This document shows, one piece after another, positions 8,216-15,116 of a stretch of DNA of 37,089 nucleotides (position 1 is the first letter of the stretch; each line of letters begins with the position of its first letter). The notes beneath the pieces were generated by a model, which saw only the letters and a list, made by a program, of their open reading frames with translations, did no database searches and was not told the origin of the DNA. The stretch is from Methanobacteriota archaeon (GTDB lineage Archaea; JAADCQ01; Methanopyri; Methanopyrales; Methanopyraceae): contig JAMOPY010000017.1 of assembly GCA_027064305.1 (NCBI GenBank), forward strand, positions 1 to 37,089, written 5' to 3'. Made by a program: the position numbers and the translations under genes.

Positions 8216-8983
8216 TTAGCGCCCCTCGACCCTCGAGGCGGCGCTAACCAGCTCCCGGACGCGGTCCACGTCGACCGGGTTCTCGGTTACCCCATCCCGT
8301 TTAAAGTAAGTTCCGACGATGAGGCCGGAGGCGCCGCGCTTCAGGAACTCCCCCACGTTGTCCGGCGTGACCCCGCTCCCCACCAGCACCCGGTCCACGA
8401 CTCGGGCCACCCGCTCCACCTCCTCCGGGTCCGGGGCGGCGCCCGTGGCGCTCCCCGTCACGATCACCGCGTCCGCCAGCCCGCGCTCGACGGCGTCCCG
8501 GGCCACGTCCTCGATGGGCCGGTCGTCCAGGGGTCGGCCGTGCTTGACCTTGACGTCCGCGTACACCTCCACGTCCAGGCCCAGGCGCTCCCGTTCTCGC
8601 TGCACCTCGTGCGCCACCGGTCGTAGGATCCCCTGGTCCGTCGCCACCGCCTCGACGTAGGCGTTGACGCGGATGAAGGAGGCGCCGGTCGCCGCGCAGA
8701 CGCTGAGCGCCGCCAGCGCGTCGTTGCGGAGCACGTTGACGCCCACCGGCACGCTCACGCTCTCGATCACCTCCGCGACCGCCCGGGTCATGCAGGCCAC
8801 GGTGACCTTCGGCACGTCGTCCGGGTAGTAAGGGGCGTCCCCGTAGTTCTCCACGAGCACGGCGTCGACGCCGCCCTCCTCCAGCCGGGAGGCGTCCCGG
8901 ACGGCCCGCTCGACGACCTCCTCGATGTCGCGCGCCCGGGGGGATCCGGGCAGCGGGGGCAGGTGCACCACGCCGATGATCAT
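8216..8983 (-). CDS. BtpA/SgcQ-family TIM-barrel protein
   Basis: MIIGVVHLPPLPGSP, ENYGDAPY, GVNVLRND, ADVKVKH, VTGSATG, GSGV; ATG at 8983. Confidence 0.92.
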   Translation of the reverse strand: MIIGVVHLPPLPGSPRARDIEEVVERAVRDASRLEEGGVDAVLVENYGDAPYYPDDVPKVTVACMTRAVAEVIESVSVPVGVNVLRNDALAALSVCAATGASFIRVNAYVEAVATDQGILRPVAHEVQRERERLGLDVEVYADVKVKHGRPLDDRPIEDVARDAVERGLADAVIVTGSATGAAPDPEEVERVARVVDRVLVGSGVTPDNVGEFLKRGASGLIVGTYFKRDGVTENPVDVDRVRELVSAASRVEGR

Positions 8984-10026
8984 CGGTCCCCGCCGCCCCG
9001 GGTGGCCTCGAGGAACGCGTCCACGAGCGCGGTCACGACGGAGGGGACCACGTGCTCGGTGGCGAAGGTCACGCCCGGGCAGAGGTCGAGCACATAGTCG
9101 CAGGCGCGGAGGACGCCGCGGGGGAGTCCCTTCCGGGATCCGGCCAGGACGACCACCTCGTCCCGCTCGGCGAGCTCCTCGCCCAGGTCCTCTCGCACGT
9201 GGGTGTAGGGCTCGCCCTTGGGGTCCGTGCCGATGAGCAGGGCGTCCCGCTTCAGGCGGACGAGTTGGTAAAGATCGTAGAGCAGCAGCTCGGTGCGCCG
9301 GAACTCCCGGCCGTAGGATTCGCGCTGCACCTCCATCCGGGACCGCACGCCGTCCCGTAGGCCTCGGAGGAAGTGGAAGAGTTCGACCGCGTTGACGGGC
9401 TCGTGGGGGGTGACGACGTAGGCCTTGAGTTCGAACCCCTGGACGGCCCGGCCGAGGCGCTCGCCCATGGAGTAGGCGGCCTTGGGGTCCCCCAGGTAGG
9501 GGATCTGGGCGAGGACGGTCTTGGCCAGGATGGGGTCGGCCTCGGGCTTCCAGGGGGGCAGCTTTTTCCACTCTTCCTCGCCGGGGAGGATGGAAACATA
9601 GGCCGTTTCTGAGATGATCTCCACCCAGACGAGCCTGTCCGGGTCGTCCAGGTCCACGCTCGCCCCGGTGGCCCGGCGGACGGCGTCCCCGGCGCGCTCG
9701 TTGACGTCCAGGCTGGTGAAGTCGTGGTCCCCGCGTCGGATGGTGCGGACCGCGAAGGTCTCGTCCTCGGAGATGCGGTCCCGGGCGAGCTCGGCGGCCA
9801 CCTCGGCGATCTCGTCCGGGTCGGCCCGGCACTCGCGCTCGATCGGGATGGCGCGCTCGACCTCGGGGATCCGCTCTAGGTCCTCCTTGGAGACGTCGCC
9901 TCGCACCAGGACGAGGCCGAGGTAGCCGTGGGGTCGGGGCTCCGTCTCGACGTCGCCCGCCTCCTCCTCGATCCGGCTGGCGGCGACGTTCTCCAGCTCG
10001 CGCTGGGTCTTCACGAGGAAGCGCAT
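8980..10026 (-). CDS. THUMP-domain + SPOUT-type RNA methyltransferase
   Basis: THUMP (ETFAVRTIRRG..FTS.DVNERAG...VDLDDPD) followed by a SPOUT knot (GSRKGLP...DLCPGVTFATEH). Confidence 0.85.
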   Translation of the reverse strand: MRFLVKTQRELENVAASRIEEEAGDVETEPRPHGYLGLVLVRGDVSKEDLERIPEVERAIPIERECRADPDEIAEVAAELARDRISEDETFAVRTIRRGDHDFTSLDVNERAGDAVRRATGASVDLDDPDRLVWVEIISETAYVSILPGEEEWKKLPPWKPEADPILAKTVLAQIPYLGDPKAAYSMGERLGRAVQGFELKAYVVTPHEPVNAVELFHFLRGLRDGVRSRMEVQRESYGREFRRTELLLYDLYQLVRLKRDALLIGTDPKGEPYTHVREDLGEELAERDEVVVLAGSRKGLPRGVLRACDYVLDLCPGVTFATEHVVPSVVTALVDAFLEATRGGGDR

Positions 10027-10065
10027 TCGGCCCGCGCCCGGGAGGGTTGGGTGCCGGGGCGGGGG

Positions 10066-10707
10066 TCAGTAGCTGGCCAGCTCGGGGTCGGCCCGGTCCC
10101 CGACGGCCTCGTGCGGGGCGAGGCCGGAGGGTTCCTCCAGGACCTCGGTCTTCCGGATCTCGGCCTGCCGGATGGGGTAGATCTTCCAGGCGGCCTCCTT
10201 GATCTGCTCGGGGATGCTCTGCTCCTCGCTGATCCCCAGGCACCGCTTGATGAACTCGTCGAAGTTGCACTCCTTGGCGTTCTCCTCGATCACGCGGAAC
10301 ATCTCCTTGCGGATGGCGCGCTGCTGGGAGGTCTTCGCCCGGCGGGTCGTGAAGGCCAGGCCGGCCACGCGGACGCGGTACCCGTCCTTGGTGACGACGT
10401 CGATCACGCCGTCGACCCGGCTCGTGCCGCGCCGCACCAGGCTCCGCACGTAGTCGCGCATGAGTCGGTGGCCCTCGAACTTGGAGTAGGCGGTCGTGCC
10501 CTCCACGTCGTAGATGCGGAAGAACACCTTGATGTGGTGCTTGGTGATGTCATCGAGCACGTCGCCGAGGGTGGTCTCCAGGACCCGGTTGATGACCTTC
10601 TTCGGGTCGTCCGCGGGCGTCTCACCGACCTCCACCCGGTCGAACATCTGCGGGGCCAGGATCGTGTACCACTTCTTCTGCCGCCACTTGTCCCGGACCA
10701 TCCTCAC
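10066..10707 (-). CDS. rps3ae: 30S ribosomal protein S3Ae (eS1)
   Basis: DKWRQKKWY..APQMF...DYVRSLVRR...TKDGY...KIYPIR. Confidence 0.97.
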   Translation of the reverse strand: MRMVRDKWRQKKWYTILAPQMFDRVEVGETPADDPKKVINRVLETTLGDVLDDITKHHIKVFFRIYDVEGTTAYSKFEGHRLMRDYVRSLVRRGTSRVDGVIDVVTKDGYRVRVAGLAFTTRRAKTSQQRAIRKEMFRVIEENAKECNFDEFIKRCLGISEEQSIPEQIKEAAWKIYPIRQAEIRKTEVLEEPSGLAPHEAVGDRADPELASY

Positions 10708-10733
10708 ACCCCTCGGCCGGCCGGGCGCCGCCG

Positions 10734-10742
10734 TTCAAAAAA
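10734..10742 (-). promoter_or_regulatory. T-tract/TATA-like element (TTTTTTGAA) between serS and rps3ae
   Basis: Isolated AT run 10 nt after the serS stop and about 30 nt before rps3ae. Confidence 0.45.
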
Positions 10743-10752
10743 GCCTCGGGAG

Positions 10753-12336
10753 CTAGCCCGGCCACGTCACCGTCTCCGGCACCTCGGGGAGCCCGCCGAA
10801 CCGCTCCTCGATCCTCCGCACGATCGGCTCCGGCCAATCCTCGGGATCGAACCCCCGCTGCGCCAGGAGCCCGACCGTCCAGCGGGTGAGCCCGAGCCCG
10901 GCGCACCCCGTGAACACGGTCCGGCCCGAGCGCTCCTTGATCCCGAACCCGTCCACGAAGTGCTCCCCGTGCACGTTGAACGAGCCCACCGACACCCACG
11001 CGTCCTCCTCGTCGCGGGACCCCTTGAACGGGAGGTACACCTCGAACTCGTACGTGGGCACGTCCGGCAGCTCGATGTCCCGATCCTCCAGGAGCCGGCC
11101 CTCCAGGTAGAAGGGATCGTCCGAGACCACGACCCGCCACTCCAGCCCCAGCTCGTCGGCCGCCCGCTTCGTCGCCTCCAGCAGCTCCTCCCGGATCCTC
11201 TCGGCGTCCTCCGGCTCCGCGATCCACACGTGCTCGATCCGCTGGAACTCGTTCACCCGCTCCAGCCCCTTCGCGGCCCCACCCTCCCACCGGTACGTCC
11301 AACCGCTGCAGTCGTAGAGCTTGATCGGCAGCTCGTCGGCGTCCACCACCTCCCCGCGGAGCAGCTCGTAGAAGGGCTCGCACTGGGCGGGCGCGAGCAC
11401 GTAGCCCGGGTCCCGGAGCTTCTCCCTCAGCGAGGACAGCGTCTTCTCGTTCAGCTCGTTCCACACGTAGAGCTCCCGCTTGAAGTCGTCGAACAGCTCG
11501 GGGTCCCGCTTGGGCGGGCAGACGTAGTACATCCCGTCCGGCAGCCCGTGCAGGTAGCGCATCCGGAACATGACCTCCAGCGGGATCAGCTTGGGGAACA
11601 GGGCCGGCTCGAAGCCCAGCCGGCGCGTCACGCGCTCCAGGAAGAAGTCCCGCAGCGCCTCCAGCAGCGCGGCCATCGGCGGCGTGTAAATCCACTGACC
11701 ACGTCCGGGGAACTCCTTGACCCACCCCCTCCTCAGGGCCTCCTCCGTCACGTCCCCCTCAAACCGCACCTCCACCGGACCGCTCTCGTCCACCACCGTG
11801 CCCGGCTCCAGCTTCGTCACCCGCTCCGCCAGCTCCCGACCACCCTCCTCCACCGCCCACCGCACGAGCCGGATCACCCGATCCACCACGTGCCTCCGCA
11901 GCAGCTCCTCGCTCAGATCCCGGAACTCCAGCTCGACCGCGTTCCCCTCCACGCGCACCTCGTCCGCCACCGGGACGTACCCCAGGTCCTCCGGCACCTC
12001 CCCCTCGAACTCCATGCGAACCCGGTACCGCTCCACGCGCAGGCCCCGAACCCCGACCCGGTGCTCCCGACCCAGCGTCTCCGCCAGCCGCTTCCGAACC
12101 CGCAGGGCGGCCTCGTGCGGGCGCAGGTACCGGGTCCCGCGGATCACCATCCGAACCTCGTCCGGAGAGACCTCCCACTCCAGGATCTCGCCGCCCTCCT
12201 CGCCCTCGGGCACGCCCCGACGGAGGAGGTCCTCGTTGGCCTCGCGCACGAACGCCTCCACGGTCCCCTCGATCTCGCCCGGGTCCACCTCGCGGGAGAG
12301 CGTGAACGTTACCTCCGCCTCCATCTCCAGCAGCAT
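10753..12336 (-). CDS. serS: Seryl-tRNA synthetase, methanogen (type 2) form
   Basis: LRPHEAALR N-domain, WVKEFPGRGQW, APAQCEPFY, RWEGG, RVNEFQRIE, TGCAGLGLTRW (Zn ligands C/E/C); ATG at 12336. Confidence 0.96.
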   Translation of the reverse strand: MLLEMEAEVTFTLSREVDPGEIEGTVEAFVREANEDLLRRGVPEGEEGGEILEWEVSPDEVRMVIRGTRYLRPHEAALRVRKRLAETLGREHRVGVRGLRVERYRVRMEFEGEVPEDLGYVPVADEVRVEGNAVELEFRDLSEELLRRHVVDRVIRLVRWAVEEGGRELAERVTKLEPGTVVDESGPVEVRFEGDVTEEALRRGWVKEFPGRGQWIYTPPMAALLEALRDFFLERVTRRLGFEPALFPKLIPLEVMFRMRYLHGLPDGMYYVCPPKRDPELFDDFKRELYVWNELNEKTLSSLREKLRDPGYVLAPAQCEPFYELLRGEVVDADELPIKLYDCSGWTYRWEGGAAKGLERVNEFQRIEHVWIAEPEDAERIREELLEATKRAADELGLEWRVVVSDDPFYLEGRLLEDRDIELPDVPTYEFEVYLPFKGSRDEEDAWVSVGSFNVHGEHFVDGFGIKERSGRTVFTGCAGLGLTRWTVGLLAQRGFDPEDWPEPIVRRIEERFGGLPEVPETVTWPG

Positions 12337-12341
12337 CGCCC

Positions 12342-13202
12342 TCACCCGCCCGGCGGGTGGCACGTGAGCGCGATCCGGCCCAGGCCGGCCGTGTTCATCT
12401 TGCCGACCCCGTACGCCGCGGCGAAGGATAAAACCTCGCCCGCGCGGGCCGGCGGGTCCGGGGGCAGCTCGTACACGAACGTCCCGACCACCGCCCGGAA
12501 CTCCTGCCGACCGATCCGGGAGGAGCGGCGGCGGAGCGTCCGCAGCCGGTAGCTCATGCTCACGGTGCGCGCGTCCTCCGACCACCGGATCAGCTCCCGG
12601 GCCTCCTCCCGGGTCAGCCCTTCCTCCCCGAACCGTCGGCGGAGCATCGTGAGCCGGCGGGCCGCGTTCCTAACGATCATGTGGAACCGGGGCACGCGCG
12701 CCCTACCCTCGTGCACGAGGTAGGTCGGAGTGAGCGTGGACACGACGATCAGGTCGCCCTCGGGCTCCAGCGGGCTGAGGCGGCGGGGCGGCACGAACCG
12801 GTACCGCTCCCCGTCGAACACGGTCTCGCCGGACCCGACGTCCTCGACCCGGGCGAGCCGGAACCGCGCGGCCCCGAGCCTTAGCCTCCGCTCGGCGAGG
12901 GGGAGCACGAGCTCCGCGTCCGCCTCCGCCGCGTCCTCGAACAGGTGAAGGTGAAAGTGGAGCCGGTCCCCCTCGCGCGCGAACTCGCTCCGGTCCAGCG
13001 GCGGGGTCAGGGTGACCCCGGAGGGGAACGGGGTGCCGTCCGGGCCGCCGTAGAGGTACCGCTCGATCGCCTCCGGGTTCGCCTCCCGGAGCCGGCTCAG
13101 GAGCATCCCTCGCACGGAGAAGCCCTTGAACTCGGGTAGGGGGCCCGGTTCCACGCACTCGAGGGTGACCCGGAGGCACTTGTAGCGGAGGTTCATCCTC
13201 AC
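12342..13202 (-). CDS. cas6: CRISPR-associated endoribonuclease Cas6 (RAMP), stand-alone
   Basis: N-terminal P.FKGFSVRG, central TLTPT, C-terminal Gly loop GVGKMNTAGLG (GxGxxxxxGxG); 286 aa. Confidence 0.85.
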   Translation of the reverse strand: MRMNLRYKCLRVTLECVEPGPLPEFKGFSVRGMLLSRLREANPEAIERYLYGGPDGTPFPSGVTLTPPLDRSEFAREGDRLHFHLHLFEDAAEADAELVLPLAERRLRLGAARFRLARVEDVGSGETVFDGERYRFVPPRRLSPLEPEGDLIVVSTLTPTYLVHEGRARVPRFHMIVRNAARRLTMLRRRFGEEGLTREEARELIRWSEDARTVSMSYRLRTLRRRSSRIGRQEFRAVVGTFVYELPPDPPARAGEVLSFAAAYGVGKMNTAGLGRIALTCHPPGG

Positions 13203-14218
13203 CCGCGTCCCCAGGGCACCGGGGCCTCGTCCACCCGGTACCGCTGCCTCACCGTGGCCCGTTTCGGGATCTCCTCGGGCGGGATGGAGTGGCCGTGCCG
13301 GTGCAGCAGGAGGCCCGTCCAGGCGATCATGGCCCCGTTGTCGCCGGCGAGGTCCGGGGGCACCGTGTGGGCCTCGGCGCCGCGCTCCTCGGCCATGGTG
13401 TGGATCATCTCGGAGAGGCGCCGGTTGGCGGCCACGCCCCCCGTGAGCAGGATCTCGTCGGCGCCGAGCTGGGCGGCGGCGCGCTCGGTCACCTCGACGA
13501 GCATGGAGAACGCCGTCTCCTGGAGCCCGGCGCAGACGTCCTCGAGCCGGGCGCCCTCCTCGTGCGCGCGCAGGGCGGCGGTGAGGAGGCCGGAGAAGGA
13601 GACGTCGGTCCCGCGCACGGTGTACGGGAGCTCGATTGGGTCGCCCTTTCTCGCGAGCCGCTCGATCTCGGGGCCTCCGGGGTGGGGAAGGCCGACCTCG
13701 CGGGCGAAGGTGTCGAGCATGTTGCCCACGGGCAGGTCCAGGGTCTCGCCGAAGACGCGGTACCGCCCGGCCTTGAGGGCGAGGACCTGCGTGTTACCGC
13801 CGGAGACGTAGAGGGTGACGGGATTGTCGAACTCGAGGCCCTCATTCCGGGCGGTGAGGCGCCCGATCTCGACGTGGGCGACGCAGTGGTTCACGGGGGC
13901 CAGCGGCACCTCCAGGGCCAGGGCGAGGGTGCGGGCCGCGGTGGCCCCGACCCGGAGGCAGGGGCCCAGTCCCGGGCCCTTGGAGTAGGCGACCAGGTCG
14001 ATCTCCTCGGGGTCGATCCCGGCCCGGTCCAGGGCCCGCTCCAGCAGCCCTGGGAGCTCCCGGGAGTGGTGCTCCGCGGCCTCCCGGGGCAGGATGCCGG
14101 ACCCGGGGGGCGGGGTGTACTGGGCCCGCTCGTTCGCGAGGATCTCGCCCTCGGAGGTCGCGACGCCCACGCCGAGCTTCTCGGCCGTAGACTCTATACC
14201 GATACAGATCTCCACCAT
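13199..14218 (-). CDS. kae1: KEOPS t6A threonylcarbamoyltransferase Kae1
   Basis: GIESTAE, PREAAEHH, GPGLGPCL, VNHCVAHVE, VSGGNTQ, GGVAAN, DNGAMIA; ATG at 14218. Confidence 0.97.
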   Translation of the reverse strand: MVEICIGIESTAEKLGVGVATSEGEILANERAQYTPPPGSGILPREAAEHHSRELPGLLERALDRAGIDPEEIDLVAYSKGPGLGPCLRVGATAARTLALALEVPLAPVNHCVAHVEIGRLTARNEGLEFDNPVTLYVSGGNTQVLALKAGRYRVFGETLDLPVGNMLDTFAREVGLPHPGGPEIERLARKGDPIELPYTVRGTDVSFSGLLTAALRAHEEGARLEDVCAGLQETAFSMLVEVTERAAAQLGADEILLTGGVAANRRLSEMIHTMAEERGAEAHTVPPDLAGDNGAMIAWTGLLLHRHGHSIPPEEIPKRATVRQRYRVDEAPVPWGRG

Positions 14219-14249
14219 GCCCGGAGCCGGCCCCCGGCGGGGAGTGCGC

Positions 14250-15116
14250 ATGGTCGGTTTTAAGGCGTCCCTGTTCCGGCGCGACTGCGCGCGGGTTTTT
14301 GAGGAGCTGGGCTATCACGTCGAGCCGGTCGGGGAGGAGCACCGGCTCGACTTCGTCGCGTACGACGAGGAGGGCGCGCTCGCGGTCCTGTGCGTCGGAG
14401 GGCGGGAGGACCTGGCCAGGTTCTCGCCGCTGGGCGAGTGGGAGGAGGGGCTGGCGGAGGTGGCCAGGGACGCGGAGGCGCTCGGGGTGCCGGCCCTGAT
14501 CGTGCTGCCGGGCGAGCCGGATGGGGAGCTGCTCTCCGTCGTGTCGTTCTGCGAGCACTACGGGCTCGGGGTGACCGTCTCGGAGTGGGAGGCGCTGCCC
14601 CTGGAGCTCGTGGAGGATCCGACGCGGGTGCGGTGGCGGTCCGCCACCGAGCTGCTCTTCGAGGTCGAGCTGGGGACCGTGCCGGAGTGGCCGGAGGTGG
14701 AGCCGGCGGAGCGGCTGCTGACGGGTAAGCGGGAGGTGAGCGTGGGGGACGTGGTGCGGATCGTGAAGCGCGAGGTCAGCCTGGACTGGAAGGACCTGGT
14801 GCTGCGTCTACGGTGGGAGGGGTACTCGGGTGAGGGGCTGTCCGAGGTCCTCCTCGCGGTGACCGCGAGCGAGGAGGTGGAGGTGACGGACGACGGGGAG
14901 TTCCTGCACGTGCCGGAGCGGCTGTCGGAGGTGCTGGGGGCCCTGCTGGTCTGGCTGCAGAACCGGGAGAAGGTGCCGGAAGACGAGGTGTACGAGTTCC
15001 TGTTCGCGCAGTTCGGGGTGCCGTACGACGTGACCTACATCGCGCTCAAGAAGCTGGAGGAGGAGGGGGAGATCGAGGTCCGGGAGGGGGTGGTTAAGGC
15101 CCGGGGTCAGACGTAG
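14250..15116 (+). CDS. Hypothetical acidic protein: N-terminal restriction-endonuclease-like fold, C-terminal winged-helix-like region
   Basis: FEELGYHV...LDFVAY...LAVLC pattern; C-terminal YIALKKLEEEGEIEVREGVV; host-like codon usage; ATG at 14250. Confidence 0.7.
   Translation: MVGFKASLFRRDCARVFEELGYHVEPVGEEHRLDFVAYDEEGALAVLCVGGREDLARFSPLGEWEEGLAEVARDAEALGVPALIVLPGEPDGELLSVVSFCEHYGLGVTVSEWEALPLELVEDPTRVRWRSATELLFEVELGTVPEWPEVEPAERLLTGKREVSVGDVVRIVKREVSLDWKDLVLRLRWEGYSGEGLSEVLLAVTASEEVEVTDDGEFLHVPERLSEVLGALLVWLQNREKVPEDEVYEFLFAQFGVPYDVTYIALKKLEEEGEIEVREGVVKARGQT

Follow-up and report, generated by a model that had tools for sequence, protein, structure and literature searches.

The kae1–cas6–serS locus

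The window analysed here is the whole of a 37,089-nt contig (C17; JAMOPY010000017.1) from a Methanopyrus genome bin, G000, which comprises 1.21 Mb in 50 contigs at 70% GC and is rated 89% complete. Its minus strand carries a cas6 gene, predicted to encode an endonuclease that processes CRISPR precursor RNAs, between kae1, the gene for the N6-threonylcarbamoyladenosine (t6A) synthase of KEOPS, and serS, the gene for a methanogen-type seryl-tRNA synthetase (Table 1). The genus was compared across six Methanopyrus species genomes, G000 to G005, of which G002 is treated as the counterpart of M. kandleri AV19. These comparisons suggest that cas6 is a long-standing resident of the site and that its product probably serves CRISPR arrays located elsewhere in the genome.

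The cas6 frame runs for 286 codons (12342-13202, minus strand) and is open throughout. An earlier reading of this DNA, made from its letters alone and here called the sequence-only reading, placed the start at a GTG overlapping the kae1 stop. The overlap itself is there: TCAC at 13199-13202 of the plus strand corresponds to a cas6 GTG (13202-13200) that shares GTGA with the kae1 TGA (13201-13199). The true start is more likely the ATG at 13196-13194, because the GTG position reads GCG in G005 and the ATG two codons downstream is common to G000, G005 and G003. This shared ATG lies 2 nt beyond the kae1 stop in G000 and immediately after it in G003, and in G005 the two overlap as ATGA. At the other end, 5 nt separate the cas6 TGA (12344-12342) from the serS ATG (12336-12334), exactly as the earlier reading had it.

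Both flanking genes are assigned to their families by profile matches. Kae1 scores 489.6 bits on TIGR03722 (cut-off 375) in a match that begins at residue 16, and its probable start is the second methionine codon, at 14218. The synthetase scores 697.2 bits on NF002120 (cut-off 611) and 608.9 bits on TIGR00415; the NCBIfam model begins at residue 84 of the long serS open reading frame (ORF), which is the ATG at 12336. Between 9500 and 16000, 8-mers in which 7 or more positions are A or T number just three. None of them falls from the kae1 start to the serS stop, one is the T-run past serS (Table 1), and the three genes are predicted to form one transcription unit. A sigma-70 promoter scan is unsuited to archaea, and its two terminator-like matches equal the number expected in shuffled sequence. 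Rfam gave no match in the window at the gathering threshold. GC content is even across the locus (0.72-0.735), and that of cas6 is the GC of its surroundings.

Table 1. Genes and candidate signals of the kae1–cas6–serS locus (positions in the window)
Feature	Coordinates	Strand	Remarks
cas6 (PF10040-type)	12342..13202	-	longest frame 286 aa, from GTG 13202; stop TGA 12344-12342
cas6, probable start	ATG 13196-13194	-	284 aa; from cross-species comparison of start codons
kae1 (KEOPS t6A synthase)	13199..14251	-	TIGR03722, PF00814; stop TGA 13201-13199, abuts or overlaps the cas6 start
serS (methanogen-type seryl-tRNA synthetase)	10753..12336	-	527 aa; NF002120, TIGR00415, PF18490, PF00587
T-run, candidate archaeal oligo-T terminator	10734..10742 (T6 10742-10737)	-	11-16 nt past the serS stop; putative function
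TTAAAA, candidate TATA-like promoter element	14258..14263	-	40-45 nt upstream of the probable kae1 ATG 14218; putative, from sequence

Family, fold and conserved residues

The cas6 product matches PF10040 (CRISPR_Cas6) over residues 155-277 with 40 bits against a cut-off of 25, and is best placed in the PF10040 branch of Cas6 rather than in the TIGR01877 equivalog. A word-based homologue search returned only four proteins, all from Methanopyrus. A profile built from five Methanopyrus proteins and run against 1.84 billion representative proteins recovered 326 relatives at E <= 0.001, 12 of them at E <= 1e-10 and only the genus's own cluster at E <= 1e-30. The NCBI names of two cluster representatives assign the cas6 family to Methanopyrus. 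Four Methanopyrus proteins were aligned with 90 of the 150 listed relatives (alignment A2), chosen by eye for a near-full-length match and typical length, leaving out fragments, very long proteins and those matching only in the C-terminal half. All 94 aligned sequences match PF10040. The 90 relatives, which represent typical PF10040 Cas6 proteins, are homologous to the window protein over its full length at 18-30% identity.

Motifs shared between these relatives and the window protein are G27/R31/G32, T158-P159, R225-x-S227-x-R229, G240 and G267-K268...G273-x-G275. R31, T158-P159, R225, S227, R229 and K268 are among the family-conserved residues that the protein keeps. A C-terminal glycine-rich loop is a motif of Cas6, and the protein carries one as G265-V-G267-K-M-N-T-A-G273-L-G275, in which G267 and G275 are invariant across the 94 sequences and G273 is present in 89 of the 90 relatives.

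A first structure prediction from five Methanopyrus sequences had a mean predicted local distance difference test score (pLDDT) of 55.9 and was discarded in favour of an AlphaFold2 model based on A2. That model has a pLDDT of 95.4 and a predicted template modelling score of 0.92, and folds into two beta-alpha-beta-beta-alpha-beta halves, the tandem ferredoxin-like (RNA recognition motif) domains of Cas6. Foldseek against the Protein Data Bank (PDB) gave 61 matches at E <= 0.001; among the matches listed, ranks 1-36 are all Cas6 proteins or Cas6 domains. They include Thermus TTHB231 and TTHA0078, Sulfolobus, Streptococcus and Pyrococcus Cas6, the Cas6 domain of Cas6-RT-Cas1 and a type IV Cas6. 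The A2 profile also finds solved Cas6 sequences directly (for example 6fjw, E 2.3e-08); a single-protein phmmer search of PDB sequences found nothing meaningful, its best hit being an unrelated protein at E 0.067. The Pfam match, the predicted fold, the structural matches and the glycine loop together indicate that the ORF encodes a genuine Cas6, a trimmed and divergent member of the PF10040 branch. The intact 286-residue RAMP protein with a Cas6 glycine loop proposed by the sequence-only reading is thus borne out, both by the family model and by the fold.

The closest structural counterparts are the Thermus thermophilus proteins TTHB231 and TTHA0078 (4c9d, 4c98, 4c8y), with template modelling (TM) scores of 0.66-0.72, the same double ferredoxin-like fold and a G-rich loop; the best single match is 4c9d, TTHB231 (E 3.8e-14, TM 0.66/0.71), and TM reaches 0.72 among the top matches. 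The Thermus enzymes differ in belonging to another Pfam branch and share only 19-21% identity with the window protein. Thermus Cas6 enzymes cut hairpin repeats and serve several effector systems. Pyrococcus furiosus Cas6 produces CRISPR RNAs (crRNAs) with an 8-nt tag; the repeat to which it binds is unstructured, and its gene belongs to a cluster of cas genes. Like the window protein it is stand-alone, a term applied to it in PMC3150331, and its structures (3i4h, 3pkm) match the model at E 5e-11 with 13-14% identity.

Conservation, selection and decay across Methanopyrus

In a protein search covering 41 genomes (the window's own plus 40 relatives), the gene turned up in four of the five other Methanopyrus species; outside the genus there was a single weak match, at E 0.0037. 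By tblastn, kae1 is followed by cas6 or its remnant and then by serS in five of the six genomes (G000, G005, G003, G002 and G001), which also share a much longer block of neighbouring genes. Identity of cas6 to the window copy is 96% in G005, 81% in G003 and 58% in G002; the corresponding values are 98, 89 and 84% for kae1 and 97, 88 and 81% for serS. Since the identity ranking of cas6 tracks that of its neighbours and its GC is native, cas6 is a long-established gene of this site, passed on vertically rather than newly inserted. Recent horizontal transfer was considered and rejected on the same two grounds.

The M. kandleri protein (P0005) is the orthologue of the window protein: it aligns at 58% identity over 96% of the length, occupies the same site between kae1 and serS and belongs to the same Pfam family. 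An NCBI source lists it as 'CRISPR system precrRNA processing endoribonuclease RAMP protein Cas6'. The M. kandleri genes are set apart by gaps of ~350 nt between kae1 and cas6 and ~50 nt between cas6 and serS, whereas those of the window abut. A non-coding kae1–cas6 spacer of ~350 nt is present in both G002 and G001, so the tight packing seen in the high-GC clade (G000, G005 and G003) is read as a late feature specific to that clade. The spacer (L049:6499-6850 in G002, L047:5564-5841 in G001) is found only in the lower-GC species; its two versions are 68% identical with 13 gaps. It contains no long ORF, and the G002 version (L049) has no Rfam match at the gathering score. A cas6 promoter or a small RNA may lie there.

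Selection was estimated pairwise by the NG86 method as the ratio of nonsynonymous to synonymous substitution rates (dN/dS). For cas6 the ratio is 0.14 between G000 and G005, 0.28 between G000 and G003 and about 0.23 (0.231-0.235) between G000 and G002; the neighbours give 0.07-0.16 (kae1) and 0.13-0.24 (serS; 0.15 against G005). The gene is therefore under purifying selection, in a range like that of serS and somewhat above that of kae1. At the dS of 0.14 that separates G000 from G005, neutral drift on one branch would be visible in the ratio.

Two species depart from this pattern. G001 is a complete genome on a single 1.42-Mb contig (99% complete), and between its kae1 and serS lies a decayed cas6, with pieces in different frames and in-frame stops. 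Apart from its first 147 nt, which do not align, the remnant is 82% identical to the G002 gene at the nucleotide level, and the alignment opens 15 gaps; for kae1 and serS of the same two genomes, identity is 93.7% and 93.3% with no gaps. In G001, no match to Cas1, RAMP, Cmr2, Cas2, PF10040, the AV19-type repeat or RF01324 was found, nor any Csm1 above the cut-off. In G004, serS lies in a different neighbourhood, and cas6 was found neither by protein search nor with PF10040 or TIGR01877. Because cas6 has decayed in the CRISPR-free G001 and is missing from G004, its product is not an essential housekeeping enzyme.

G004 does hold a Csm1/Cas10 match above the cut-off (C34:133-2742, 251.5 bits). 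No RAMP, Cas1 or Cas6 match was found there, and its only RF01324 match, at E 0.67, is not credible. Either the bin is incomplete and the Csm1 gene is what it retains of a type III locus, or the species relies on another processor.

CRISPR systems in relatives with an intact cas6

The closed G002 genome combines its intact cas6 with arrays and type III genes. Matches to Cas1, Cas2, Csm1 and Cmr2 and seven RAMP matches lie at 1.30-1.34 Mb. A 36-nt repeat, the Rfam family CRISPR-DR11 (RF01324), occurs 38 times in five arrays at 1.11, 1.297, 1.307, 1.328 and 1.362 Mb. The only PF10040 match in the genome is the kae1–serS gene at 1.486 Mb, at least ~120 kb from all five arrays. It is also the best TIGR01877 match, the second (E 0.019) being a RAMP gene of the csm locus.

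An 8-nt tag on crRNAs whose ends require T4 polynucleotide kinase is a known signature of Cas6 cleavage. According to PMC3695527, AV19 carries III-A and III-B genes, all five of its arrays are transcribed and processed, and most of its crRNAs have an 8-nt 5' tag and needed T4 polynucleotide kinase treatment for sequencing. The word Cas6 appears nowhere in that paper, and a literature search found no paper characterising the M. kandleri Cas6 protein or its location between kae1 and serS. Because the 8-nt tag is the Cas6 signature and the orthologue of the window gene is the sole Cas6 in G002, this orthologue is the obvious and only candidate crRNA processor in AV19.

The AV19 repeat, with up to three mismatches, and its 7-mer tag pattern were absent from G001 and G003-G005. 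A covariance scan with RF01324 did find diverged repeats in G003 and G005: it gave 40 matches in G002, nine in G003 and one in G005, all genomes with an intact cas6. The nine in G003 comprise two four-repeat arrays on its contig C47 and a lone repeat on C22. A 7-bp hairpin is kept in the repeats of three lineages; one repeat of a four-repeat array in G003 (L056:5043-5078, on C47) is altered on both sides of the stem with pairing kept. The closest relative of the window's genome, G005, gave matches to Csm1 and Cmr2 and seven to RAMP, every one of them on a contig ~2.4-4.1 kb long. Cas7/DevR and Cas5 matched none of the six genomes, and type I genes were rejected on this basis.

A probable processor for remote type III arrays

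The explanation that best accounts for these observations, with a probability of roughly 0.72, is that the window gene encodes a functional, stand-alone Cas6 endonuclease for precursor crRNA, vertically inherited and co-transcribed with kae1 and serS, that serves type III arrays located elsewhere. What the data show is the fold and family of the protein, the synteny of its gene, purifying selection on it and where in the genus it is present, decayed or absent; the substrate and the presence of arrays in this organism are predicted. In the proposed scheme, cas6 keeps its fixed site between kae1 and serS, and arrays as well as genes for type III effectors and adaptation would sit in variable regions elsewhere. 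The enzyme would bind the 7-bp hairpin of the 36-nt DR11-type repeat in the precursor and cut 8 nt before the 3' end of the repeat, yielding crRNAs with an 8-nt 5' tag that III-A and III-B complexes would load. In the high-GC clade, cas6 has lost its own upstream spacer, and because it is packed between kae1 and serS without one, expression is probably constitutive from the kae1 promoter. A stand-alone Cas6 serving type III complexes from a distance is established, and the M. kandleri orthologue already bears the name Cas6. The mechanism implied is ordinary, not new.

Several observations weigh against this explanation. The protein reaches 28.4 bits on TIGR01877, short of the cut-off of 58.65 and in the C-terminal half only, and of the 31 columns in which 85% or more of the 90 relatives from outside Methanopyrus agree, it keeps 20. 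None of the four Methanopyrus proteins has the four-cysteine insert that follows helix 1 in 80-86 of those 90 typical PF10040 proteins. Catalysis is itself a prediction, the retained residues being known as conserved in the family and not as an active site, and the expression of cas6 and its co-transcription with kae1 and serS are likewise predicted. The co-occurrence of cas6 and repeats is a pattern among six related genomes and not a statistical test. G004, with Csm1 and without a detectable cas6, points either to another processor in the genus or to an incomplete bin. Unlike the closed G002 genome, the G000 bin yielded no other CRISPR component: a k-mer chain search over all 50 contigs, the window included, found no array, none of three repeat versions and no RF01324 match was found, and Cas1, RAMP, Cmr2, Cas2, Cas7 (DevR) and Cas5 gave no match, with no Csm1 above the cut-off. 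Type III-B-like contigs in the sequencing runs described below are not linked to the window's organism as opposed to a co-resident Methanopyrus, and they lie ~10-13% from G005, more than housekeeping genes do.

The four-cysteine insert corresponds to A2 columns 70-98, where the window protein has residues 40-47. It is possibly a zinc-binding element that was lost in Methanopyrus.

CRISPR content of the window's organism

The absence of CRISPR from an 89%-complete bin is weak evidence that the organism lacks it, because bins of this genus drop CRISPR loci. A scan of metagenome contigs with the repeat of the high-GC clade found 29 loci with 100 exact repeats, one of them letter-for-letter identical to contig C47 of G003. 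The G003 bin, rated 99% complete, contains nine repeat matches only, eight of which are on that contig, and neither Cas1 nor Cas2 was found in it. Locus L065, part of a 25-kb metagenome contig with several arrays, encodes Cas2, a Piwi-domain protein and Cas1. Four DNA sequencing runs contain 0.83-0.86 of the sampled words of the kae1–cas6–serS stretch, and the same four contain many short contigs, mostly 85-95% like the Cmr locus of G005, which occupy 25-30 of its 30 bins; uncovered parts of that locus carry no meaning. Arrays and effector genes most likely are missing from G000 because such loci assemble into short, variable contigs. Searches of G000 by tblastn and blastn with the cas ORFs of G002 and the cas and array contigs of G005 and G003 gave no match except a repeated DUF1678 gene.

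DUF1678 (PF07913) is a multi-copy family that adjoins CRISPR arrays and cas islands in Methanopyrus. Two copies lie in G000 outside the window (C10:17052-17712 and C31:36015-36680), and further sites are L031:17624-18262, L056:1903-3012, L079 and L080. Four ORFs of G002 at 1.285-1.365 Mb match the same G000 locus, one of them scoring 339.8 bits on PF07913; one copy stands on the array contig of G003, and sequences 86-90% like the G000 copies occur at two array loci from metagenomes. The family could be a mobile or CRISPR-linked gene.

The cas2–Piwi/Argonaute–cas1 module of L065 (1006-4105) lies beside DR11-type arrays and is 51-69% identical to the G002 genes. AV19 has an argonaute gene between cas1 and cas2 (PMC3695527), and this arrangement recurs in L065 and therefore in a second Methanopyrus lineage. 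A further locus, L066, holds a second copy of the module with a stop within the argonaute frame.

Neighbouring genes and other features of the window

The genes around cas6 are related to RNA or translation: Kae1, the seryl-tRNA synthetase, S3Ae, a THUMP-SPOUT methylase and a Bud32-like kinase. Many archaea have kae1 next to bud32 or fused with it. In the window, the Bud32/RIO-like kinase gene (PF01163; 15107-15775, minus) is parted from kae1 by an ORF on the opposite strand (14250-15116, plus); this ORF is 65-81% conserved in relatives and has no Pfam family match. The only tRNA in the window is a tRNA-Pro (CGG) at 1-93 on the minus strand, right where the contig ends.

As is typical of DNA with 70% GC, the window has some very long ORFs that are spurious or merged. 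The frame at 9928-12552 on the plus strand is an 874-aa frame antisense to serS. In the 684-aa frame at 8216-10270 on the minus strand, the BtpA gene makes up only the last 254 aa, and the remainder overlaps the THUMP-SPOUT methylase gene at 8980-10026.

Alternative explanations

The main rival to a functional processor is that cas6 is a relic in transit: the arrays and effectors were recently lost, and a functionless gene sheltered in an essential operon will decay as it has in G001. The bin without repeats or cas genes would fit this, the fate it predicts has been realised at this very site, and a very recent loss is compatible with pairwise dN/dS. Against it, cas6 and serS have equal ratios to G005 (0.14 and 0.15), and at dS 0.14 a relaxation on one branch would raise the value even if only moderately old; the frame, the glycine loop and 20 of the 31 family-conserved positions are intact. 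III-A and III-B genes are also present in G005, III-B-like contigs occur in the runs with the operon, and CRISPR loci are dropped from bins of this genus. A relic is therefore rated unlikely. Somewhat less probable still is that cas6 of the high-GC clade has turned into a core gene, packed for translation with kae1 and serS and under purifying selection even where effectors are gone; it would act on orphan mini-arrays or non-CRISPR hairpin RNAs to an end other than interference, such as regulating RNA or staying ready for CRISPR islands to be regained.

The sequence-only reading had offered two uses for the gene. The first, a processor of remote arrays, fits all the comparative evidence, since this is the sole Cas6 of G002 and is intact in the repeat-bearing genomes. 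The second was a domesticated Cas6 cutting non-CRISPR RNAs such as tRNA precursors, the operon mRNA or precursors of C/D-box small RNAs. The RNA- and translation-related neighbours, the start and stop packed against kae1 and serS in three species and the lack of CRISPR parts in the bin are what speak for it. If cas6 were needed to mature tRNA, mRNA or small RNAs, two of the six species could not do without it, so the pseudogene in the complete G001 genome and the failure to find the gene in G004 contradict domestication. The synteny comparison, which included a CRISPR-free genome, shows the site kept in five of six species and the gene decayed in G001. In addition, the ~350 nt between kae1 and cas6 in G002 and G001 make the packing late, no repeat-like candidate substrate was found elsewhere in G000, and the intact copies are in genomes with repeats. 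Domestication is accordingly rated improbable, below the other functional alternative. Its premise of a genome without CRISPR is weak, since it rests on an incomplete bin of a genus whose bins demonstrably drop such loci; the observation behind it, that the 37 kb contain no repeat array or other cas gene, is correct and extends to all 50 contigs. Taken as a whole, the earlier interpretation is partly supported. A chance frame in DNA of 70% GC, for which the many long overlapping ORFs of the region, such as the 874-aa frame antisense to serS, might be adduced, was rejected and has next to no probability: the Pfam match above cut-off, the 326 relatives, the Cas6 fold at pLDDT 95 and a dN/dS well below 1 refute it.

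Implications for Methanopyrus CRISPR biology

With cas6 read as the processor of remote arrays, its fixed core-genome address between two essential translation genes is mildly notable, as part of a defence system would be anchored in the stable core genome while other parts come and go in variable islands. Also notable is the series within the genus, which runs from an intact and packed gene through an intact gene with a spacer and a pseudogene to absence. For scans of genomes there is a caution: a cas gene that looks like an 'orphan' in a metagenome bin has often just been parted from its companions by binning. The genus amounts to a natural experiment on a small scale, with cas6 intact where repeats exist and decayed in the closed CRISPR-free genome, which argues that a Cas6 can lie among housekeeping genes without doing their kind of work.

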